DNA of 63,850 nt, the filler included, from Reclinomonas americana ATCC 50394 (lineage: Eukaryota): the NCBI GenBank assembly GCA_048213135.1. It is 9 parts of 4 records of this genome, joined end to end, with 100 filler letters (N's around TTAATTAATTAA, not from the genome) between each part and the next. Parts side by side here need not be neighbours in the genome. Positions count along the whole stretch, not along the records: positions 51,206 to 57,289 come from PS015727.1; positions 57,390 to 61,106 come from PS015727.1; positions 61,207 to 63,850 come from PS015727.1; 6 more parts are not named here. One strand, given 5' to 3'. Position numbers and translations under genes: made by a program. Position 1 is the first letter of the stretch. Each line of letters starts with the position of its first letter. The notes under the pieces are model-generated. The model ran no database searches and had not been told where the DNA came from. It saw nothing but the letters and a program-made list of their open reading frames with translations. Positions 18,490-63,850 of this stretch are shown in pieces.

Positions 18490-20497
18490 ATGGTGTGGTA
18501 CGACAGGCTGCTGGAGTCCAACGTGCTGCCGGACTGGTCAGTGCTACACGACATGCATGCTGCTTGTTTTGCGCGCGCGCTGCGACATGGCCTACTGATT
18601 GCCACCTCTCTCTCCCTCCCTCTCCCTCTCCCTCTCTCGCTTGCCGTCCGTTCGCGATGCAGGCTGTTGCGCATTGGCATTCGTCGACTGCTGCGCTCTC
18701 GTCTGCAGGAGATTGCATCGCCGACGGCGGAGTTGCATCATGAGCGACTGCGACAGTACCTGACACGTTTGCGACGCGAGGACTGCATTGCGCTGGCCAC
18801 GGATGAGGCCAACCAACAGCACTATGAAGTGTTGCGTGAACGGCGAGGGAGGGGGAGGGGGAGTGAGGTGTGAGAAGTCTGCTGCTGCAGCACCAGCAAT
18901 GCGAGAGTTTTTCGGGGGCGGAAACTCCGCTCGGCAGCGAGCAGTAGTCATGGCGCATGATACACTCTAGCAGAGTCCCTCTTTCTGTCAGTGAGTGCAT
19001 GTGCGTGTCTCTCTCTCTCCCTCCTTGTGATTCTCTCTGTGACGGTGACGCGGTGAGATTCGTCTAATGCGTTGTTCACCAGCGGAGTTTTCACCGTCGC
19101 AAGCATCTTTTGCGCTGACGACCAGTGCTGCAGTCACCCCATCTCCGTGAGCTAGGCAAGATGTTTGTTTGAGTGCTTATGCTTTTGACTCTCTCCCCAC
19201 TCTCCCACCTGATATCGTTCTTTTTCGCTTTGTACAAGTTCTCACGTTCTCGTTCGCCACACTCCTTTGGTCTCGTCATGATCACTTCTCTGCTCTGCAG
19301 TTGTCAATTATCACCCATGCTCTCGCCCTCTCCCTCCTACTCTCTCTTCTGATCTCGCTCTTTTTCGCGTTGTACAAAGTTCTCACGTTCGCTCAGACGA
19401 ACTTCGTGTTCTCTGCAGCTTTTGAATCTCACTCATGATCACGCCCTCCCTTTCCTCTCGCAGACCCACCGAGTTCTTCCACTTGTCTCTCGGGGCGCGG
19501 AAAAAGTATTCGTCCTGCTACTGGCCCGACGGCTGTCGCACGCTGGAGGATGCCGAGACGCACTGCTTGGAGTTGTACGTCGATCGTGCACAGCTGCACG
19601 ATGGACAGGATGTGCTCGATCTCGGCTGCGGGTTGCGTAGCCAAATCATAAAAGTGCTGCCTCTGCGACCGCAGCGATCGCTTACCGATCAATGCAGGTG
19701 GGGCTCGTTTACCCTGTTCGCCGCCCAGCGATTCCCCAACTCGCGCATCACCGCCGTCTCCAACTCGTCGACGCAGCGCGAGTACATTGAGAGCGAGTGC
19801 CGCCGTCTGGCGCTGAAAAACGTCACAGTCATCACGTGCGACATTAACCGGCTGGCGCTGCCGGCGGCATCCTTCGACCGAGTGGTCTCTGTGGAGATGC
19901 TCGAGCACGTGAAGAACTACGAGGCCGTGATGCGTCGCATTTCGTCGTGGATACGCGACGACGGCCTCCTCTTTGTGCACGTCTTTTGTCACAAGGATAC
20001 GCCGTATGATTTCGAGGACGGGTGGATGGCCGAGCATTTCTTCACCGGCGGCACCATGCCGTCGGCACAACTGTTTCACTACTTTCAGGAGAATGTGGTG
20101 CTGGTGGATCAGGTGTGAAAGGAAAGGGGAAAAGGGGGAAAGGGGGTGATTTGTTGACTGACCTGCCTGCAGTGGTTGATGAACGGCGAGCACTACGGCA
20201 AGACGTGCGAGGCGTGGCTGGAGCGCATGGATATGCACGAAACTCGCATCCGCGATCTGTTTGCGGAGACGTACGGAGCAGGGGAGGAGACCAAGTGGAT
20301 CGTTCGCTGGTGAGAGTGGGGAGTGCATGAATTGTTCACACAACACGAGCTCTCACCTCTCTGGCTCACCGCGCAGGCGCTTGTTCTACATGGCGTGTGC
20401 GGAGCTCTTCAACTACGATGGTGGAAACGAGTGGTTCGTTTCGCACTACTTGTTCAAGAAGCGCGCAAGTCCACCGCCAGCCGCTGTGGTTATGTGA
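18490..20497 (+). CDS. SAM-dependent methyltransferase, cyclopropane-fatty-acid synthase / coclaurine N-methyltransferase-like family
   Basis: [35 protein letters not shown]…VLDLGCG/WGS…[14 protein letters not shown]…[16 protein letters not shown]…FFTGGTMPS…[26 protein letters not shown]. Confidence 0.92.
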
Positions 20498-50885: not shown

Positions 50886-51961
50886 TCACTCGGTGGTTGT
50901 TGTGGTTGTGGTGGTGGTGGTCGTTGCGGCATCGTCGGCCGGTGCAGCAGCAGCAGAGGCGGGGGCGGGGGCCGGCGAGGCGGCGCCAGAGTCGGCGGGC
51001 GGTGCGGCTGACTTGGTCGGTGACGAGCCGCTGGCGGGTTGCGCGCGGGCCTGGGCCTCCTCAAAGGCCGCCTTGAACTTTTGTGCCACTGTGGTGAGGG
51101 AGGAGNNNNNNNNNNNNNNNNNNNNNNNNNNNNNNNNNNNNNNNNNNNNTTAATTAATTAANNNNNNNNNNNNNNNNNNNNNNNNNNNNNNNNNNNNNNN
51201 NNNNNGGCTTGTCAAAGCGGTACAACTTGGCACGTCTGCGCACATACACAAACAAGGTGAGTGTCTACACAAGACGCACTCTGTGCGTGTGTGACAAAAG
51301 AGTGTGACGCAACGCCTTGAACAACTCGCTCTCCTCCTCCTCCAACGACTTGACCTCCACCTTCTCCAGCTCAACCAGCGGCTTGAAGTCTGATCGCCAC
51401 GCCTGTGTGTGTGTGAGAGAGAGACAAAAGTGTGTGTGTGAGTGAGTGAGAGACAACTCTCAACGGGACATGCTCATGCTCAACAACCAAAACTCGCACA
51501 CACACAAACGCGCACAGTTGCAACACTGGTGTGTCTCTCTATATACAAATGCAGCTCACACAGTGCACGTGTGTGCGTGTGCGCGTGACACTTGACACAA
51601 AAAACTCGCGCCCAAAAGTGCACACTCACAAACACACACGCACACAGAGAGACAACTTGTTACACGCCTGCTCACCCACACACACGCTTGCAAAGACATC
51701 TCTCTCACACACACTTGCGCGCCATGTCACGCACTTGTGATCCCCTTTTTCCTGCTGTCAACTCACCCTCTCCTCCTCTTCTGTGGGCTCTGCACTTGCA
51801 CCCTCTCCCTCCTCCTCGCCTGCTGCAGCAGTGGCCGCCGCAGAGGAGCCACCAGCAGCAGCCGCGCCAAATGAGAATGCACCCGCACCACCAGTGCCAA
51901 AGGAGAATGTGCCCGCAGCACCACCGCCAAACAGAGGCTTCTTCGGGGGTTCAGCAGACAT
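50886..51961 (-). CDS. RANBP1: Ran-binding protein 1-like protein (RanBD1), middle lost in a gap
   Basis: DFKPLVELEKVEVKSLEEEESELFK/ARAKLYRFDK…AQKFKAAFEEAQ, preceded by an N-terminal extension with LFGG/FSFG motifs. Confidence 0.85.
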
Positions 51962-52215
51962 TGGCTTTGCGCGGTGTGAGTGTCAAAATAAAGGTCGTGT
52001 CCTGCGCGTCGACCGTTGCAACTCATCTCGGACGCATTCGCGCGATGTCTGCTGCGCGATGTGCATGACTATGTGGTGCATATGCGTGTATTAGCAGCTG
52101 CGTGGCTTGTTGCTTTTGGTGTGCATTGCACGTGCGACGTTGCAAATGCAGCGTCCGGCTGTCCTTCGACGTTCGTTTGCATCACAAACAGTGTCTCAGG
52201 GGGGAGAGAGGCACC

Positions 52216-55200
52216 ATGGATCCACGCGCTGTGCCGATGGACATGGGCGGCACTCCGTATGGAATGCACATGCCTCCGGTACGCAGCAACGCACAAACAA
52301 ACAAAAACAAAGAAGAAAAGCATGAAATGTCTCACTTGTGACACACACTTGTCTCACACACAGGCTGCAACGCGCATGCACGCTGGTGCAGCAATGCCGA
52401 ATGCGGCATTGACGCCCGCCGGACAGCCAATGACACTGGAGGAGAAAGGTGCGTGTAAAGAGTGCGCGCGTAAAAGTGCGCAGGTCCATGTCCACGCTCA
52501 CTTTGCCTCTTTTGACACGCACGTGCAGCCAAAAAGTGGAAGAAGATGAATCAGAAGAGGTAATGCCGCAGAGTGCGCGTGCTCTTGCACACATACACGC
52601 ACAATGAGTGAGAGACTCTTTCTCACTTTCTCTCTTGTGTGTGCTTGCTTGCAGATACCACGACAAACGCAAGTTCGGCTACAGTGAGGTGCCGAAGGAG
52701 GATATGCCTCCGGAGCATTTGCGCAAGATCATGAAGGACCATGGCGATATGAGGTGAGAAGCAAGATTGCATGTATACTGCAGGAAACTCCATTCACTCT
52801 CCGTGCTCTGCGCTGCTCTTTCCACCTGCCTCTGTGGTTGTTCAACGTCGTCTCCTTCGCCCTCTCCTCTGTGCTCATCTCGTCGTTGTTAGTCTCTTGC
52901 ATCTTTCTCTCTTTGCTTTCTCTCTGTCTTTCTCTCTCTCTCGCTCTCTTTCTCTCGCGCTCTCTCTGCGTCGCGCTGCTCTGTTCAGCTCTGCTCATTC
53001 CACCTGCCTCTGTGGTTGTTCAACATCGTCTCCTTGGCCCTCTCCTCTGTGCTCACCTTGTCATTGTTTGTCTTCTGCATCTTTCTCTTCTTGCTCTCTG
53101 ACTCTCATGCTGTGCGCTGCTTTTTCTGGCTACTTCCGTGCCTGTTCAGACTCTCGTTGTCTCCTTTCGCTCTCTTCTCTCGCCTCTCCAGTTCTTGTCT
53201 CATCGCTGTTCGTCTCCTGCATCTCTCTCTTTCTCTCTCTTTGCGCTGTTCTGCTGTGCTCTTTCCGCCTGCCTCATGACTGATCAGTCGTCGCCCTTTC
53301 TTTTGCTTAGTCCTCTTCCCTTACCTCCTCTGTAGTTGTTCGTCTCCTGCATCTCTCTCTCCATCGTCTTTCTCGCTGCTCTCTACGCTACTCCCGTGGT
53401 TGCTCATCGCCCTTCGTACTCCTGTTCTCCGCTCATCTCTTGTCATCAACCCTTCATCGCGTACTTGTTGTGTCTCACTCGCACCGTCCCTTTGCCCCTA
53501 TTCCCCATTCACAGTTCGCGCAAGTTCCGTCGCGAGAAGCGTGTGTACCTGGGCGCGCTCAAGTACATGCCGCACGCCATCACCAAGGTACTGGAGAACA
53601 TGCCGATGCCGTGGGAGCAAGTTCGCGACGTGAAGGCGCTGTACCACGTCACCGGCGCCATCACCTTTATCAACGAGACGCCCAAGGTGGTCGAGCCCGT
53701 GTTTATCGCGCAGTGGGCCACCATGTGGATTGTCATGCGTCGTGAGAAGCGTGATCGTCGCCACTTTAAGCGCATGCGCTTCCCACCGTTTGACGATGAG
53801 GAGCCGCCGCTGGATTACGGCGAGAACGTCTTGGTGAGTGCACAGCGCAACAAGGCACATTTCTTCACTGCTCTCTCTCTCTCTCTCTCTCGCTCACGCT
53901 GCCACATGCTCTTCACTTGTTTGTTCGTGCTCTGCATGCTGTGCTCCCTCTGCTTGTGCCTCAAACGTTTCTGGTTTCTCTCGTTGTTCGTGTACCTTGC
54001 TCCCTCCTCATTTGTTCCGTTCTTCACTCTATTCGTCCTGCTCTCTTTTTCTCTTGTGCCTCGCCCTCACATTCTCTTTCTTCGGCACTTTTTGCTCACT
54101 CACCTCCCTTTTCCCTTCTTCCCCCTTTCCCTTCTATTTCAGGACGTGCAACCACTCGACCCGATCCAGATGCAACTGGACGAGGAAGAAGACGCGGCTG
54201 TGATTGACTGGTTCTACGACCAGCACCCGCTCTCCGACACCAAGTTCATCAATGGTCCCTCGTACCGCCACTGGCACCTGCCAATGCCGGTGATGGCCAC
54301 GCTGTTCCGCCTGTCGGGCCAGCTGCTCTCCGACACCATCGACCGCAACTACTTTTACTTGTTCGAGCCCAAGTCGTTCTTCACCGCCAAGGCGCTGTCG
54401 ATGGCCATTCCCGGCGGCCCCAAGTACGAGCCGCTGTTCCGCGACGTGGACACGGATGAGGACTGGAACGAGTTCAACGACATTAACAAGATCATTATTC
54501 GGCACCAGATCCGTACCGAGTACCGCATCGCGTTCCCGTACCTCTACAACAACCGGCCACGCAAGGTGCACCTCACCTGGTACCACTACCCGTCGCTCTG
54601 CTACATCAAGACCGGCGATCCGTTCCTGCCCGCGTTCTACTTTGACCCGATCATCAACCCCATCTCGGCGTACAAGACCGAGCACTCGCGTGTGTACGCG
54701 CACGTGATGGAGGAGGAGGAGGGCGAGTATGCCGACGATGATGAGGTGTGTGAAAGTGAGAGAGACTGTGGGGTGAGAGGAAGAATGAGAAGCTGACGTG
54801 TGTTGGGCCGTGCCTGTGCAGTTCTACCTGCCAGAGGAGATCTCTCCGTTCCTTGCCGACACTCCGCTGTACACGGACAACACGGCGAATGGCATTGCGC
54901 TGTACTGGGCTCCGCATCCGTTCGACAAGCGCTCGGGTCGCACACGACGTGCCCTCGATGTGCCGTTGGTCAAGGTGAGCTTTGCTTTGAAGTTTGTCGC
55001 TCTGCATACTTGTGTGTGTCGCCACTGGTTCGCCGAAGAGTTCATTTCACGAACTCGTGTCTCTCTCGACTTGCCCTCTTCTCACTCCGCTCTTTTCTTC
55101 CTCTGTCTCCCCTTTCCGTCTTCCTCTCTTTCTCTCATCAAGCCCTTCTCCATTCTGCCTTCTCCCTATCCCCCAATCTCTGCCCCCCTCTCTCTTTCTC

Positions 55201-58200
55201 TTTCTCTTCCTCTTCTTCTTCTCTCTCTCTCCCTTTCTCTCTCTCTCTCTCTCTCTTTCTTCCTTTTCCTCTCTCTCTTCCTCTTTCTCTTCTCTCTCGC
55301 CTTCTCTCTGTTTCATCTCTTCCCTTCCCAATTTCCCTCCTCTCTCCCCTCCTCTCTCCCGTCTCTCTCTCTCTCTCTCTCCCCTGTCACCTCTCTCTTT
55401 CCCTTCCNNNNNNNNNNNNNNNNNNNNNNNNNNNNNNNNNNNNNNNNNNNNNNNNNNNNNNNNNNNNNNNNNNNNNNNNNNNNNNNNNNNNNNNNNNNNN
55501 NNNNNNNNNNNNNNNNNNNNNNNNNNNNNNNNNNNNNNNNNNNNNNNNNNNNNNNNNNNNNNNNNNNNNNNNNNNNNNNNNNNNNNNNNNNNNNNNNNNN
55601 NNNNNNNNNNNNNNNNNNNNNNNNNNNNNNNNNNNNNNNNNNNNNNNNNNNNNNNNNNNNNNNNNNNNNNNNNNNNNNNNNNNNNNNNNNNNNNNNNNNN
55701 NNNNNNNNNNNNNNNNNNNNNNNNNNNNNNNNNNNNNNNNNNNNNNNNNNNNNNNNNNNNNNNNNNNNNNNNNNNNNNNNNNNNNNNNNNNNNNNNNNNN
55801 NNNNNNNNNNNNNNNNNNNNNNNNNNNNNNNNNNNNNNNNNNNNNNNNNNNNNNNNNNNNNNNNNNNNNNNNNNNNNNNNNNNNNNNNNNNNNNNNNNNN
55901 NNNNNNNNNNNNNNNNNNNNNNNNNNNNNNNNNNNNNNNNNNNNNNNNNNNNNNNNNNNNNNNNNNNNNNNNNNNNNNNNNNNNNNNNNNNNNNNNNNNN
56001 NNNNNNNNNNNNNNNNNNNNNNNNNNNNNNNNNNNNNNNNNNNNNNNNNNNNNNNNNNNNNNNNNNNNNNNNNNNNNNNNNNNNNNNNNNNNNNNNNNNN
56101 NNNNNNNNNNNNNNNNNNNNNNNNNNNNNNNNNNNNNNNNNNNNNNNNNNNNNNNNNNNNNNNNNNNNNNNNNNNNNNNNNNNNNNNNNNNNNNNNNNNN
56201 NNNNNNNNNNNNNNNNNNNNNNCAGGTCCTTGCACATGCGGATCTGAAATGGAGAACAAGTGGAATGAGGGAGAGAAATGGAGAAGGGGGGATGAGAGGA
56301 ACGGGGAAGAACGCGAGAAAGGAAGGCGACGAGAACGGAGAAGAGAGAGCGAAGAGTGGAGAAGGGAGGAAGAGACTATTAAAGAAGAGAGAAGAGGGAA
56401 CGAAGGAGAATAAAGAAAGAGGGAAGATGAGAGGAATGAAGGAGAGCAAGTGAGAGTGAGAGGGATGAAAGAGAACGCAGAAACGAATGCTGTCACGCGA
56501 CACACACTGTGCACGAGAACTTGAGCAAACAGAACAGAAGCACACAAGAAAGAGGGAGAGTAACGAAAACACAGTCAAACAAAAGATGCCAATCAACAAT
56601 TGAAGTGAGAGACGGAGAGCACACAAGAACACAGCCAGACAAAACAAAACTGACACACAAACTAGCGCACTAGTTCTCTATTCTCCCTCTCTCTCTTTTC
56701 CTCCCCCACCCACTCACCTGACGCATGAGCTTGTACTTGTAGCGGTACATGCCGGTGAGTTGACCGACATGAGCCAGGGTGTACTGGATGCCGTCGGCCA
56801 GCTGGAACGCGTCGACATTGCCGAGGCGGTACTGGACATTGGCGTCCACCAGCAGCTTCATCAAGCGCAGGATTTCACGACACAAGTGGAAGGCATTGCC
56901 GAAGCGCGACTTCTTGCGCTCCTTGGTCGTCAGCGTCTTGACTGGCTTCAAATTGAAGTTGTAGTCCAAGTGCAGGTAGTTGAGGTTCTTGCGGTGGATG
57001 AGCAGGTTGAGCATGTTGTAGCCCTGGCGCGCCACCTGCAGGCCGACCTCCACCCAGTCGAGCGTCGTCTGCTGGAAGAACTTGGTCTGGCGGAAGGCCT
57101 TGAACAGGAACTTCTTGCGCAGCGACTTGGGCGGCTTGTGGTGCAGCTCGTTGAGCACGTAGCACTTGAGCAGCTTCTGGTACGACACGCGGACTTTGAC
57201 CGGGTACTCGCCAGGCGGGCGCTCTTGGTACCATGCCTGGGTGGGTGCGGGGCAAGGGATGAGAAGGGGGGACGAGGGAGGGAGATGGGNNNNNNNNNNN
57301 NNNNNNNNNNNNNNNNNNNNNNNNNNNNNNNNNTTAATTAATTAANNNNNNNNNNNNNNNNNNNNNNNNNNNNNNNNNNNNNNNNNNNNTCTCCGACTCG
57401 AGGCCCAGCGCCTCCATGAACGGCAGGGTCGCCGCCAGTGGCAGCACACCTTGCGAGAAACGGGACTGGAACTGCACCGCAGCGCTCGGATCGGACTGAC
57501 CCAGCTGGTACACGCTGTCCGCCGACGCAATGACAAACGGCTCCGTGCGCTTGGCGGCGTAGAACTCGCCGTTGCTGGCGGGCACTGTGGCACCCATGCG
57601 CACGTACATGTTGTGGTTGTCCGTGGGCGTCAGTGACACATTGTCGCCGTCTTGCATGACAATCAGGCGGTGCTTGTCCGTGTTGGTGATCAATCTGTCG
57701 GCCGTGATGGTGTGGTACTCCAGCTTGCCGTCGACGTAGCAGGCGACACGCAGCTCCTTGTGCTCCTGGAAGTGCGCGCGCACGTCGTCCAGCGAGTAGA
57801 AGCCGAACTCGGTGAGGACCTCGTGGTCGAGCGGGAAGCAGTTGAAGCGGTAGTAGATCACGTGCTTNNNNNNNNNNNNNNNNNNNNNNNNNNNNNNNNN
57901 NNNNNNNNNNNNNNNNNNNNNNNNNNNNNNNNNNNNNNNNNNNNNNNNNNNNNNNNNNNNNNNNNNNNNNNNNNNNNNNNNNNNNNNNNNNNNNNNNNNN
58001 NNNNNNNNNNNNNNNNNNNNNNNNNNNNNNNNNNNNNNNNNNNNNNNNNNNNNNNNNNNNNNNNNNNNNNNNNNNNNNNNNNNNNNNNNNNNNNNNNNNN
58101 NNNNNNNNNNNNNNNNNNNNNNNNNNNNNNNNNNNNNNNNNNNNNNNNNNNNNNNNNNNNNNNNNNNNNNNNNNNNNNNNNNNNNNNNNNNNNNNNNNNN

Positions 58201-61200
58201 NNNNNNNNNNNNNNNNNNNNNNNNNNNNNNNNNNNNNNNNNNNNNNNNNNNNNNNNNNNNNNNNNNNNNNNNNNNNNNNNNNNNNNNNNNNNNNNNNNNN
58301 NNNNNNNNNNNNNNNNNNNNNNNNNNNNNNNNNNNNNNNNNNNNNNNNNNNNNNNNNNNNNNNNNNNNNNNNNNNNNNNNNNNNNNNNNNNNNNNNNNNN
58401 NNNNNNNNNNNNNNNNNNNNNNNNNNNNNNNNNNNNNNNNNNNNNNNNNNNNNNNNNNNNNNNNNNNNNNNNNNNNNNNNNNNNNNNNNNNNNNNNNNNN
58501 NNNNNNNNNNNNNNNNNNNNNNNNNNNNNNNNNNNNNNNNNNNNNNNNNNNNNNNNNNNNNNNNNNNNNNNNNNNNNNNNNNNNNNNNNNNNNNNNNNNN
58601 NNNNNNNNNNNNNNNNNNNNNNNNNNNNNNNNNNNNNNNNNNNNNNNNNNNNNNNNNNNNNNNNNNNNNNNNNNNNNNNNNNNNNNNNNNNNNNNNNNNN
58701 NNNNNNNNNNNNNNNNNNNNNNNNNNNNNNNNNNNNNNNNNNNNNNNNNNNNNNNNNNNNNNNNNNNNNNNNNNNNNNNNNNNNNNNNNNNNNNNNNNNN
58801 NNNNNNNNTCGAGTGCAACGCATTCCTGGCACTGTACGGCTACTGGCTGGCCGACGGCTGGCTCGACTTCGCCTCCAAGTCGGTCGCTTTCGGGCCCAAG
58901 AAGGCGGTCTATTTGGATCAGCTCTTCTCGGCGCTCCAGCGCGTCCTGCCGCTCGACAGTGAGAATGGCGTCGCGGTGGACGCGAAGCAGCGCCACTACA
59001 CCATTCGCAACCAGGCATGGTGGCACTACTTTGCTGACGAGTACGACGCTGCGTGCAAGCCGGAGTCGACCAAGTGGTTCTGCCAGTGGGTGCTCCGCAG
59101 CCTCAACATGGCACAGTGCCGTCTGCTGCTGCAGGGCCTGTGCGTGGCGGATGGCGACCGCGGCAAGATCGGCACATCGTCGCCGCGCTTCCGCGATCAG
59201 TTGATTCAACTGTGCCTGCACGCCGGCTACAGCGCGTACTTTACCGTGCAAGCCGGCACCTACGACGTGTGCTTTGGCGACGAGTGCACCGTGGCGGAGC
59301 CGAAGCTGACCATCTCGTCGGAGGTCACGGAGAAGGCGTACGACGGCACGGTGTGGTGCGTGACGGTGCCCACTGCGCAGCATCTCATTGTCGTTCGCCG
59401 TGTTCTGGAGCGCGAGGGCGACATCATCACCAAGGCGTCGCAGCCGCTCATTGTCGGCAACACTGGACCAGTCGGCAAGGGACCTGGCTGCGGCTTCTGG
59501 GCGCCCATGTGGCGCGTGTGGCTGTTCTTCATGCGTGGCGTGGTGCCGCTGCTGGAGCGCTGGCTCGGCAACTTGCTGGCCCGCCAATTCGAGGGCCGTA
59601 CACAGAAAGGCATTGCCAAGACGGTCACCAAGCAGCGTGTCGAGTCGCACTTTGACCTGGAACTTCGTGCCGCCGTCATGCACGACATTGTCGACATGAT
59701 GCCGGAGGGTATCAAGGTACACTACCTGTCCCTCGCCTTCCCCTCTCCCTCTGTCCCTCGCCTCACCCCCCTCTTTTCCCTCTTCCCCCTCTCGCAGAGC
59801 AACAAGGCTCGTGTGATCCTGCAGCACTTGTCGGAGGCGTGGCGCTGCTTCGCGCCGGAAACGCGCGTGCGCATGGCGGACGGCAGCGTGAAGGAGGCCG
59901 GCAGTATCGCCATTGGCGACTGCGTCCTTGGCGCGCAGGGCGAGAGCCTCAAGGTCAAGGAGACGATGAGCGGCATGGACGCCATGTACCGCGTGACCGT
60001 GCTGCCCGACAAGAGCAACCACGACGACGCGCAGTGGGAGTTTGTGGGCGACAGCTTCTCGTGCAACTCGCGTCACGACCTTGTGCTCGTGGCACCGAGC
60101 ATGGACACCGACGCCCGCGTGATCCACGAGGCGGAGGCGCGCCGCTTCATTGTGCGCTACGCCGAGGTCGCGCCGTACGAGGGACCCGCCAGCGTCGACG
60201 ACTCGATCGTGCAAAAGTGCCGCATCTTTGCCTACGCTGACGGTCTGTTCGCGTCGGAGCAGGAGGCGCTGGCTGCGGCCGAGGCTTTTTCGGCCGAGTG
60301 CGAGAAGCGGGGGCCTGTCGTGTGGACCGTCTCCGCGGCTGGGTTCGTCTCCTACGCGGAGCACCACCCCACCTTGGCGAGCGAGATGCGCATGGTCCGC
60401 GCGGACAAGATCGAGCTGCGTGGCTCGAGCGAGGACGCCGACATCAGCAAGCTCGTCGCCAAGTTTGTGACTGCCGACGACGGTTGCGAGCCTGTCGACG
60501 CGCACGACGTCGGCTACCTGCTGGGCCTGCACCTCGCTGTCGGCAGCGCCACTGGCGCATCCTTCTTTGTCGGCGAGCACGAGTCTGCCATCCTGAGCCG
60601 TCTGGACAGTGTGGCGCCCCGCCTGGGTCTCGCGTGCAACCGCGACTCGCAGTCGGGCATGCTCGAGGTCCGCCTGACGGGCTCCACCGAGGAGAACTCG
60701 CTCATGGCCGTCTTCCGCGGCCTGGGCTACCTGCCGGAGACTGGCAACAAGGTCGCCTCGTCCGACCTCGCCCGCAACCTGCTGGCGCAGCCGGCAAGCG
60801 TGCGTCGCGCCGTGCTCGCTGGCCTGATCGACGGCGACGGCAGCCTCGAGGCGTGCGGCTTCGCCTTTGTGCAGAGCACGCACCACGACACCATCATGTC
60901 GCTCTTCCAGGACCTGGCGCGCAGCGTCGGCCTGCTGTGCAACGTCTACCGGTGCACCGCCGCTGTGGAGTCGGCGCATGCCGTCGCGTGTCGCCTGTCG
61001 GGCACCGACGTCCACGGGATCCCCTGCGTGCAGAAGCTCGTGTCGCAGCATGAGTGCGGCGACAGCAGCTGCGTGCCGTTCTCCATTGAGCGTGTCAGCG
61101 AGCATGNNNNNNNNNNNNNNNNNNNNNNNNNNNNNNNNNNNNNNNNNNNNTTAATTAATTAANNNNNNNNNNNNNNNNNNNNNNNNNNNNNNNNNNNNNN

Positions 61201-63850
61201 NNNNNNAACACACACAGACTCACCAGTTGGGGAACAGGTGGCGCTTGTCGGCCTCGTACCACAGGTACTGGTCGAGGTAGGCGTCGGTGATCTTCTCCAG
61301 CGGGTCCACATCGTACACCGGGATCATGTAGTTGAAGAGATCCATGAACTCAATGTTGACCTCCTTGAAGGCACGCTGCGTGAGCAGGTGGCGCTTGATG
61401 CGCGACAGCGCCTCGTGTGGGTTGTCGTACGCCTGCTCCACCAAGCCGAGCTCCTCGCGCTGCGACTGGTTGAGACGCGCCTTGACGTTGTAGGCCTCAC
61501 GCAGACGCTCCAGTGCCAAAATCAGCAGCTTGGTGTCGTGCTTGTACGACAGCGGCGGGAACGGAATCGGCGAGAACTTGCGCGACTCGAGCCAGTGCAC
61601 CATTTGTGTGTAAATGGCCACGGCCTCCTCGGGCGTCACGTACGGTCCGTCCTTCAGGTAGTTGTGCTGGCGCTCCTGCTCGGCCTTGAGCCAGAGGCGA
61701 GTGAGGCGGCCCAGGTTCTTCTTGCACACCTGCACGACGCGCGGAAACCCCAGGAGAAAGTCAGCAATGCGGAGAGAGAGAGAGAGAGAGCGGGGACACA
61801 GGTAAGAAAACGCAACAGTCTTGTCGACAGTGGCACCACGGCGAATGCGCTCGCGGTTGTAGTGCGCCGTGTTGGTCCACCAGTCGGCCTTGGTCTTGAC
61901 GTAGCGGAGAATCATGTTCTCAATCGCACCCGGCAGGCCCGGCACCTTCCACGGAATGTTGGCCTTCCAGCAGTTGTGCACCACGAGCCAGCTCTCGAGC
62001 AGGAAGTAGGGCGAGCCGTGCAGCTCAAAGCCAACGTACGGCGNNNNNNNNNNNNNNNNNNNNNNNNNNNNNNNNNNNNNNNNNNNNNNNNNNNNNNNNN
62101 NNNNNNNNNNNNNNNNNNNNNNNNNNNNNNNNNNNNNNNNNNNNNNNNNNNNNNNNNNNNNNNNNNNNNNNNNNNNNNNNNNNNNNNNNNNNNNNNNNNN
62201 NNNNNNNNNNNNNNNNNNNNNNNNNNNNNNNNNNNNNNNNNNNNNNNNNNNNNNNNNNNNNNNNNNNNNNNNNNNNNNNNNNNNNNNNNNNNNNNNNNNN
62301 NNNNNNNNNNNNNNNNNNNNNNNNNNNNNNNNNNNNNNNNNNNNNNNNNNNNNNNNNNNNNNNNNNNNNNNNNNNNNNNNNNNNNNNNNNNNNNNNNNNN
62401 NNNNNNNNNNNNNNNNNNNNNNNNNNNNNNNNNNNNNNNNNNNNNNNNNNNNNNNNNNNNNNNNNNNNNNNNNNNNNNNNNNNNNNNNNNNNNNNNNNNN
62501 NNNNNNNNNNNNNNNNNNNNNNNNNNNNNNNNNNNNNNNNNNNNNNNNNNNNNNNNNNNNNNNNNNNNNNNNNNNNNNNNNNNNNNNNNNNNNNNNNNNN
62601 NNNNNNNNNNNNNNNNNNNNNNNNNNNNNNNNNNNNNNNNNNNNNNNNNNNNNNNNNNNNNNNNNNNNNNNNNNNNNNNNNNCGTGTGTCTGCCCCTTGT
62701 GTCTCAAATGACAGTCTTCTCACTTGATTCATTCTCTCTTTTTCTCTTTCTCTCTCTCAGGATCAAGCCGGCCGATTCCGAACCCGCTCCGCTGCTGGTG
62801 TACAAGTGGTGCGCCGGCATCAACAACCTCACCGACGTGTGGGACACGTCGTCGGGCGAGTGCGTCGTGCTAATGGAGACGACGCTGGAGAAGATGTACG
62901 AGAAGATCGACTTGACGCTGCTCAACCGCATGCTGCACCTCATCATGGACCACAACATTGCGGACTACATGACGGCCAAGAACAACGTCGTCATCTCCTA
63001 CAAGGACATGCAGCACACCAACTCGTACGGCATCATCCGTGGCCTGCAGTTCGCCTCCTTTATGGTGCAATTCTACGGCCTCATGTGCGATCTTCTGCTG
63101 CTCGGTCTTGGCCGCTCCAGCGAGATTGCCGGCCCGCCGAGCTTCCCCAACGATTTCCTGGCGTTCCGCGATGTGCACACGGAGACCAAGCACCCCGTGC
63201 GCCTGTACTCGAGGTGAGTGGATTGGAGGAGCAGTGCCAAGGCACATTCACGGTTGCGACCTTCGTTTTTTCTGTTTTCCCTTCTCCTTGCATTTACTTG
63301 CCACTTATCCTTGCATTTTGTCGCCACTCCTTGCACTCTCTCGCCTGTCCTTCCCTTTCTTCCGTCTCCCCCTTCCCTTTCTTCTCTTCCCCTTGTCTTA
63401 CTTCCTCCTGCCTTCTCCTTCCTCCTGCCTTCCCCTTCTCCTCCACTCCCCTTCTCCTCCCTCCCCCTTCTCCTCACTTTCCGTTCCACCACCAGGTACA
63501 TTGATCGCATCCACGTGCTGTTCCGCTTCACGGCGGAGGAGGCCCGCGACCTCATCCAGCGGTACCTGACGGAGAACCCGGACCCCAACAACGAGAACTT
63601 TGTCGGCTACCGCAACAAGAAGTGCTGGCCGCGCGATTCGCGCATGCGCCTCATGAAGCACGACGTCAACCTCGGCCGTGCCGCCTTCTGGGAGATGAAG
63701 AACCGCCTGCCTCGCTCCATCACCACCTTTGACTGGGACAACAGCTTCGTGTCGGTGTACAGCAAGGACAACCCAAATCTGCTCTTCTCGATGGCCGGTA
63801 CGTCACTGGATGCTCCACCGCCATTCTCCCGGTCTTTCACGCCTTTGGCA
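52216..63850 (+). CDS. PRP8: Pre-mRNA-processing-splicing factor 8, 5' half (continues past the window), containing two inteins; contigs 56223-57289, 57390-57867 and 61207-62043 are inverted in the scaffold
   Basis: Near-invariant Prp8 motifs: [136 protein letters not shown]. Confidence 0.98.
57390..59461. mobile_element. PRP8 intein 1 with LAGLIDADG homing endonuclease, about 368 aa (57840->57390 on the minus strand joined to 58809->59461 on the plus strand)
   Basis: In-frame insertion between YYRFN and TGPVGKG. Block [15 protein letters not shown], block B TDNHNMYV, blocks [11 protein letters not shown] and LQGLCVADG, block [13 protein letters not shown]-terminus PLIVGN followed by Thr. 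Confidence 0.93.
59846..62043. mobile_element. PRP8 intein 2 with LAGLIDADG homing endonuclease domain, about 444 aa (59846->61106 on the plus strand joined to 62043->61973 on the minus strand)
   Basis: In-frame insertion between LSEAWR and CWKANIPW. Block [15 protein letters not shown], block [12 protein letters not shown], block [11 protein letters not shown], block [11 protein letters not shown], blocks F/G YVGFEL…[11 protein letters not shown] followed by Cys. Confidence 0.95.

Follow-up and report, generated by a model that had tools for sequence, protein, structure and literature searches.

The window analysed here, a stretch of 63,850 bases from the genome of Reclinomonas americana ATCC 50394, covers the first ~1000 extein residues of PRP8, a core protein of the spliceosome, and two large inserts interrupt the coding sequence in this region. 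It is very likely that both are genuine class-1 inteins of the LAGLIDADG type residing within a single PRP8 gene in a GC-rich eukaryote, and that the assembly has broken this gene and turned parts of it around. The first insert (intein 1) follows the extein residues YYRFN, the second (intein 2) follows SEAWR. According to an original prediction made on this DNA, flipping the inverted contigs gives one PRP8 reading with two in-frame inserts 101 residues apart and an intron of 81 nt; reading frame, homologue alignment and tblastn all confirmed this. Both inteins are selfish residents adapted to their host, and they do not represent a new kind of system.

Contigs have been strung together in the window to form a pseudo-molecule, which contains 28 runs of N. 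Sixteen of these are runs of 44 N, paired around the 12-mer TTAATTAATTAA to form 8 linkers of 100 nt (44 N + TTAATTAATTAA + 44 N). The other 12 runs, of 130-941 N, lie inside the linker-joined units and are scaffold gaps. The PRP8 finding spans two linker-joined units and reaches into a third, with the following layout.

51206-55407, plus strand: PRP8 piece A1
56223-57289, minus strand: PRP8 piece A2
57290-57389 and 61107-61206: linker fillers
57390-57867, minus strand: PRP8 piece B1
57868-58808: run of 941 N, as laid out between the halves of intein 1, with no coding sequence lost at that join
58809-61106, plus strand: PRP8 piece B2
61207-62043, minus strand: PRP8 piece C1
62044-62682: N run
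62683-63850, plus strand: PRP8 piece C2

A tblastn search of the window with the PRP8 protein of Auxenochlorella (P0028, 3174 aa) gave 10 matches, which cover residues 38 to 2038 in strict protein order and fall on exactly the six PRP8 pieces with the expected strand flips. All three internal joins of the gene are in frame. The join between A2 and B1 is a codon boundary (..CKDL, then KHVIYYRFN), and at the other two a codon is split into 1 nt and 2 nt, giving ATC where B1 meets B2 and GCG where B2 meets C1. Compared with homologues, no residue is lost or doubled at the join inside intein 1, which falls at 258/261 of P0175, 186/188 of P0027, 3076/3078 of P0023 and 1286/1288 of P0024. The same holds for the join inside intein 2 (629/632 of P0001), where a MAFFT alignment agrees. 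Since the alignments with homologues continue over the joins with every residue accounted for once, the pieces can be taken to adjoin each other in the real genome, and the run of 941 N would be a scaffolding artefact rather than a hole in intein 1. An origin of the contigs from different loci, which the original prediction had named as a finding that would overturn it, is not supported in view of the 10 collinear matches and the three exact joins. Three short PRP8 pieces run opposite to their neighbours but adjoin them to the base; presumably the scaffolder inverted small contigs.

The exons and introns of PRP8 were placed as follows.

52653..54971, plus strand: PRP8 N-terminal exons (piece A1), with 4 ordered tblastn matches to P0028 residues 38-423
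56223..57254, minus strand: PRP8 exons of the flipped piece A2, from tblastn and translation
about 57236-56718, minus strand: main exon of A2 (AWYQER..LMRQ)
56243-56223, minus strand: short exon of A2, ending ..IRMCKDL at the piece edge
57841..57867, minus strand: N-extein KHVIYYRFN directly before intein 1 (piece B1), continuing ..CKDL of A2 in frame
59462-59716 and 59798-59845, plus strand: extein between the inteins, 101 aa, Pfam PROCN 3.6e-51
59717-59797, plus strand: GT..AG intron of 81 nt in the extein between the inteins
61223..61972, minus strand: C-extein from Cys+1 (CWKANIPW..), Pfam PROCN 4.3e-38 and tblastn
61816-61730, minus strand: intron of 87 nt in the C-extein
62762..63850, plus strand: next PRP8 exons (IKPADSE.. 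onward), from tblastn; the gene runs off the window

Both insertion points lie inside the PROCN region of the PRP8 N-terminal domain. The +1 residue of intein 1 is a Thr that corresponds to T618 of human PRP8, and that of intein 2 is a Cys that corresponds to human C719; in yeast the positions are about 692 and 792. The gene has many short introns; these are rich in CT and contain (CT)n-like runs (55000-55407, 56250-56700, 61730-61816 and 63230-63480). At least one scaffold gap is located within such a CT-rich PRP8 intron.

The two inserts were delimited to the residue, with the junctions YRFN/CFPL and IVGN/TGPV for intein 1 (368 aa) and EAWR/CFAP and VVHN/CWKA for intein 2 (444 aa). Both are in frame, and, as the original prediction had held, removing both restores the conserved Prp8 sequence, the flanking exteins continuing the PRP8 alignment without loss. 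Intein 1 has Cys1, a block B of the form TDNH, a terminal GN and Thr+1, while intein 2 has Cys1, a block B of the form NSRH, a terminal HN and Cys+1. Their parts are located as follows.

57390..57840, minus strand: N part of intein 1, 150 codons + 1 nt, with Cys1 and block B TDNH at residues 73-76
58809..59461, plus strand: C part of intein 1, 2 nt + 217 codons, ending ..IVGN before Thr+1
58826-58858 and 59126-59155, plus strand: LAGLIDADG motifs of intein 1, with Asp in both
59846..61106, plus strand: N part of intein 2, 420 codons + 1 nt, with Cys1 and block B NSRH
60518-60544, plus strand: LAGLIDADG motif 1 of intein 2 (..HLAVG), with the Val codon GTC
60812-60841, plus strand: LAGLIDADG motif 2 of intein 2, intact (..LIDGDG), with Asp
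61973..62043, minus strand: C part of intein 2, 2 nt + 23 codons (PYVGFEL..LVVHN), on the flipped piece C1

There are no stops in the 810 whole intein codons and no frameshifts. The G + C content at third codon positions (GC3) of the inteins, 0.886, is close to the 0.871 of the exteins, and none of the four intein borders has the GT..AG of an intron; the inteins begin with TGC and end with AAC. The lack of stops, the matching GC3 and the lack of GT..AG borders together indicate long-resident translated sequence and not RNA introns. Since the inserts have homologues at E values of 1e-68 to 1e-90, a chance origin is ruled out.

On this basis both inteins would be translated within the PRP8 precursor and would then remove themselves by protein splicing, leaving normal PRP8. 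The chemistry, predicted from the conserved residues, would start with an acyl shift at Cys1; transfer would follow to the +1 residue, which is Thr in intein 1 and Cys in intein 2, after which the terminal Asn would cyclise and a last shift would restore the peptide bond. The PRP8 protein would need at least two such splicing events, as had been proposed before, and the presence of two genuine inteins in one PRP8 gene supports this.

Intein 2 is the more readily classified of the two. It matches the Pfam families Hom_end_hint (3.1e-17), which gives it a Hint fold, and Hom_end (1.2e-4), and it matches PI-SceI over residues 4-378 (375 residues) with an E value of 1.1e-14. Together with its two LAGLIDADG motifs, the matches to Hom_end and PI-SceI identify an endonuclease fold. 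Among proteins of 420-1339 aa, 22 relatives were found with E <= 0.001, and the top eight are PRP8 fragments, Linderina and Coemansia records included, with a homologous insert at the identical point. In the alignment of inteins at this site, P0001-P0003 are full-length forms (538-620 aa), P0005, P0006, P0007 and P0032 are mini-inteins (224-327 aa) without endonuclease, and P0028 is a decayed form; the copy in the window is full length. By its sequence, intein 2 is a member of the PI-SceI-like family, which Capsaspora, Auxenochlorella and Kickxellales fungi carry at the identical point of PRP8.

The earlier description of both inserts as full-length homing-endonuclease inteins holds in that both are genuine and of the LAGLIDADG type; it needs to be amended for intein 2, which has Val (GTC) in place of Asp in motif 1. 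The full-length P0001, P0002 and P0003 have Asp there, a residue which, from PI-SceI, we take to be catalytic and needed for cleavage. Intein 2 thus does not have an acidic residue in each of its endonuclease motifs. Because Val replaces Asp in motif 1, the endonuclease of intein 2 has probably lost one active site and become inactive.

Intein 1 is of a different family. Homologues of its N part are 37-51% identical. Among proteins of 1340-3825 aa, 21 relatives were found with E <= 0.001, and a library-wide search gave further ones. The members share a pattern that starts with CFPxxDHxxLT, contains a TxNH block and two LAGLIDADG motifs, and ends with ASRPxVVGN; the next residue is Thr, Ser or Cys. 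The C part of intein 1, modelled with AlphaFold2 from a 15-row alignment, reached a pLDDT of 75. A Foldseek search of the Protein Data Bank (PDB) with this model gave 44 matches with E <= 0.001, the top ones being intein and intron LAGLIDADG endonucleases: 2cw7 (1.8e-5), 7qsu, I-DmoI and PI-SceI, with PI-TkoII and the TliVMA intein also matched. An Atlas feature search with the C part found LAGLIDADG_3 clusters at 0.94. Intein 1 therefore has the features of a two-motif LAGLIDADG endonuclease, namely both motifs, with Asp in each, and a match of its model to the alpha-beta-beta-alpha-beta-beta-alpha double fold. Because both motifs keep their Asp, intein 1 may still be mobile.

The hosts of the intein 1 family (P0025-P0043, P0229 and P0263-P0302, retrieved with 58811-59461 of the window as query) include many unrelated nuclear proteins, in which Pfam recognised Mo25, WASH7, Rpb2, NOG1, Ufd2P and Nop; P0030 is an RBR/IBR-type protein. 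The family is present in multiple copies in other genomes. Within PRP8, members occupy three further points (AVAIY/, RWGDFD/S and FEGNLT/TKPING) and likely a fourth, PVLFY/CPKE in P0023. In viral contigs, a single-protein scan gave 5 pattern matches, none of which was confirmed by tblastn.

Several points weigh against two functional inteins in one PRP8 gene, and most concern intein 1. Its pieces matched no Pfam family, and its C part gave no match to the PDB by sequence. Its putative Hint domain is spread over two pieces, and the model of the N part alone (pLDDT 76) gave a weak fold match, with a best Foldseek E value of 0.17 and a best Z of 5.5. Intein 1 lacks the penultimate His and has a Gly instead. 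Its grouping with the same-site inteins of P0175 and P0028 depends on an SH-aLRT of 85 in a quick tree, and a second same-site pair, P0164 and P0255, is placed elsewhere in that tree. For both inserts, retention in the mRNA and actual splicing are deduced from the DNA. The assembly is scrambled, and the joins within both inteins rely on frame and homology. Finally, a second, intein-free copy of PRP8 may be present elsewhere in the genome.

Some of these points also apply to other members of the intein 1 family. In an alignment of 15 members (alignment A1), no member gave a Pfam match to a Hint or intein-splicing family at E <= 0.01, and 2 of the 15 gave weak matches to LAGLIDADG_3. A profile of this alignment gave only PRP8 domain IV matches in the PDB, derived from the flanks in two rows, and no intein. 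Of the top 27 rows of a VIA-align search with the N-part model, 26 (Z 3.3-5.5) belong to inteins or Hint domains and place residue 8-10 of the model on intein residue 1 (Cys). The penultimate Gly (G216) is invariant in all 15 rows of the family alignment, and a Gly-Asn ending is, as far as these sequences go, the norm for this family.

Three other explanations were considered. Decayed relics, or a non-functional PRP8 copy whose inteins no longer splice while a clean PRP8 elsewhere does the work, would account for the Val at a catalytic endonuclease position of intein 2 and for the missing penultimate His of intein 1. We consider this very improbable. The 810 intein codons are free of stops and frameshifts, their GC3 is as high as that of the exteins, and the residues at the splice junctions are all present. 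Gly-Asn is the family norm for intein 1, and the exteins share 74-81% identity with the PRP8 of Auxenochlorella and are interrupted by proper introns.

Even less credible is an assembly chimera, in which intein halves from different intein-bearing genes or haplotypes were mis-scaffolded, so that the complete inteins would be partly artefacts. The contigs do break inside both inteins, three pieces are inverted, and a family that is multi-copy in other genomes and spread over many host genes, as that of intein 1 is, could make an assembly graph branch. However, each intein half is tied on its outer side to PRP8 extein. The chance of three in-frame joins would be 1 in 27 by our own estimate if frames were random, the joins align to homologues with no residue extra or lost, and order and content match Auxenochlorella PRP8 throughout. 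Removal of the inserts as RNA introns that hold intein-like reading frames is the least probable of the three, since, although the gene has many short introns and an intron and an intein are reported to exclude each other at one PRP8 codon in Bathycoccus (available text of PMC3749507), the borders are not those of introns (TGC and AAC, with GT..AG at none of the four) and the reading frames stay open, match the phase of both exteins and have a coding GC3, unlike the CT-rich true introns. Two genuine inteins within a single PRP8 gene thus remain the preferred reading.

It had also been suggested that one or both insertion sites might be rare or new alleles. To determine occupancy, a corrected motif census was made of 155 proteins (144 new rows from the library-wide search and 11 earlier ones), which were chosen by likeness to the query, so that the counts are biased upward. 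Of the 68 proteins covering site 1 (YYRFN/T), 6 have it filled. Site 2 (SEAWR/CWKAN) was filled in 13 of 53, with homologous inserts 36-54% identical. Among the 24 proteins that cover both sites, 14 are empty at both, 6 are filled at site 2 only, 4 at both and none at site 1 only. The co-occurrence of the two inteins is a lead rather than a test, as three of the four doubles are Coemansia. The four are Auxenochlorella P0028 and Coemansia P0005, P0032 and P0164. Named NCBI records with an intein of the intein 1 family exactly at YYRFN/T are P0028 from Auxenochlorella and P0005, P0032, P0164 and P0255 from Coemansia.

Site 2 is already in print. The SEAWR/CWKAN point appears as EAFR/CWKA in the accessible part of PMC10710043, and the C-extein CWKANIPW stands in the Auxenochlorella row of supplement 1 of PMC5784728, as far as that file was available. 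By its insertion point and its homology to the inteins there, intein 2 belongs to the SEAWR/CWKAN allele. The letter of this site varies between b, d and E in the portions consulted of PMC3749507, PMC10710043 and the supplement of PMC5784728, with E for Auxenochlorella in the 2018 table; it is usually lettered b (InBase, Monier). With site 2 in print and filled in 13 proteins, and site 1 filled in 6, the suggestion of rare or new alleles has to be dropped: both alleles and their pairing are already in public data.

For site 1, no printed YYRFN/T junction was found in the available text and tables on PRP8 intein sites, figures apart. Prp8-b, -c, -e and -f and Capsaspora are absent from the portion of the text of PMC6805012 at hand, and the word 'Prp8' from the supplement files of PMC10710043 to the extent that they were accessible. 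In the available text of PMC6805012, ~100 inteins are given for PRP8 site a and seven sites are lettered. The same text agrees with the earlier remark that the FWEKA/SGFEE site holds most of the known PRP8 inteins. Among eukaryotic intein sinks PRP8 is the best known, and because public PRP8 records carry up to five inteins, two in the N-terminal domain are an ordinary state for this gene. It is possible, though we think it unlikely, that YYRFN/T (T618) lies outside the seven lettered sites and that its occupant belongs to a large intein family under-counted by surveys. If so, the number of PRP8 intein sites would clearly exceed the seven or eight in print, and the census of eukaryotic inteins would be too low.

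Counted by position, large inserts in the PRP8 proteins fall at 12 distinct insertion points, against seven or eight in print; among these points are RINTLF/, RWGDFD/S, FEGNLT/TKPING, QVRA/CKDL (P0165) and AVAIY/ (P0291).

The PRP8 gene described here would add one more lineage whose spliceosome core protein is to mature by protein splicing. A green alga, Kickxellales fungi and the genome of the window all have the same pair of PRP8 sites filled, which is consistent with homing that recurs at a very conserved target rather than with anything special to this genome. Eukaryotic inteins and PRP8 insertion sites have probably been under-counted, because the YYRFN/T intein has no Pfam match and is unlisted for Auxenochlorella in the survey supplement. 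The understanding of the mechanism of inteins or of PRP8 is unchanged by the finding.

In the rest of the window, Pfam analysis of 90 long frames gave ordinary eukaryotic domains only. A single open frame of 230 aa at 19426-20115 (plus strand) encodes a methyltransferase resembling cyclopropane-fatty-acyl-phospholipid synthase. It gave 1922 matches, the best with 82% identity and the next with 47-56%; the latter include many bacterial entries from Myxococcota and also eukaryotic ones. Those with a species name, at 47-54%, are bacteria, fungi and plants mixed together.

Of the known systems, the PRP8 protein of Auxenochlorella (P0028, NCBI, 3174 aa) is collinear with the gene in the window and has inteins at exactly both points. 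These differ from those of the window in length (400 and 441 aa) and are 37-50% identical to them, and the endonuclease motifs of the site-b intein are more decayed than those of intein 2. In the accessible part of supplement 1 of PMC5784728, the 2018 survey table credits Auxenochlorella with a single PRP8 intein, preceded by an 'N-extein' of 1119 residues. The 400-aa intein at YYRFN/T of P0028 sits within that span, and the survey appears to have missed it.

Coemansia PRP8 proteins (C. brasiliensis P0005, C. guatemalensis P0032 and C. aciculifera P0164) have both sites filled with members of the same two families. In contrast to the window, the three proteins have at site b mini-inteins of 224-230 aa that lack an endonuclease, and they have a third insert at PPVIFY/C. 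The PRP8 of Coemansia javaensis (P0167, 3637 aa) contains three large inserts, and the partial NCBI PRP8 protein P0023 (3407 aa) contains five.

Capsaspora owczarzaki likewise has a multi-intein PRP8, in which sites b, e and f each hold a full intein according to the available text of PMC3749507. Compared by eye in the portion of supplement 1 of PMC5784728 at hand, its 'B' intein shares conserved strings with intein 2 (e.g. ..RMADGSVK..), and its 'F' intein has the signature of the intein 1 family (CFPxxDHEVLT, PTDNH, AFLELYGY..GDGWL). The Capsaspora sequences are not those of the window, and in that source the B intein keeps the Asp in endonuclease motif 1.

Higher numbers occur in Anaeramoeba ignava BMAN, whose PRP8 has five inteins (PMC10710043, in the part available), and in Kickxella alabastrina, whose PRP8 of 4703 aa (P0313) contains five inserts, each 329-563 aa long. 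In both, as in the window, PRP8 serves as a sink for inteins, which occupy several independent sites, one of them lettered b; they differ in having more inteins and in using other sites.

The closest solved relative of intein 2 is PI-SceI, the VMA1 intein of Saccharomyces (PDB 1dfa, 1vde, 1ef0), with which it shares the Pfam families Hom_end_hint and Hom_end. PI-SceI is an active endonuclease with both catalytic Asp residues present; it resides in another host protein, and intein 2 differs from it by the Val in motif 1. The site-a mini-intein of Cryptococcus neoformans PRP8, as described in the accessible text of PMC6805012, is also a PRP8 intein with a class-1 mechanism that starts from Cys1, but it lies ~900 residues downstream at site a (FWEKA/SGFEE), measures 171 aa and has no endonuclease.

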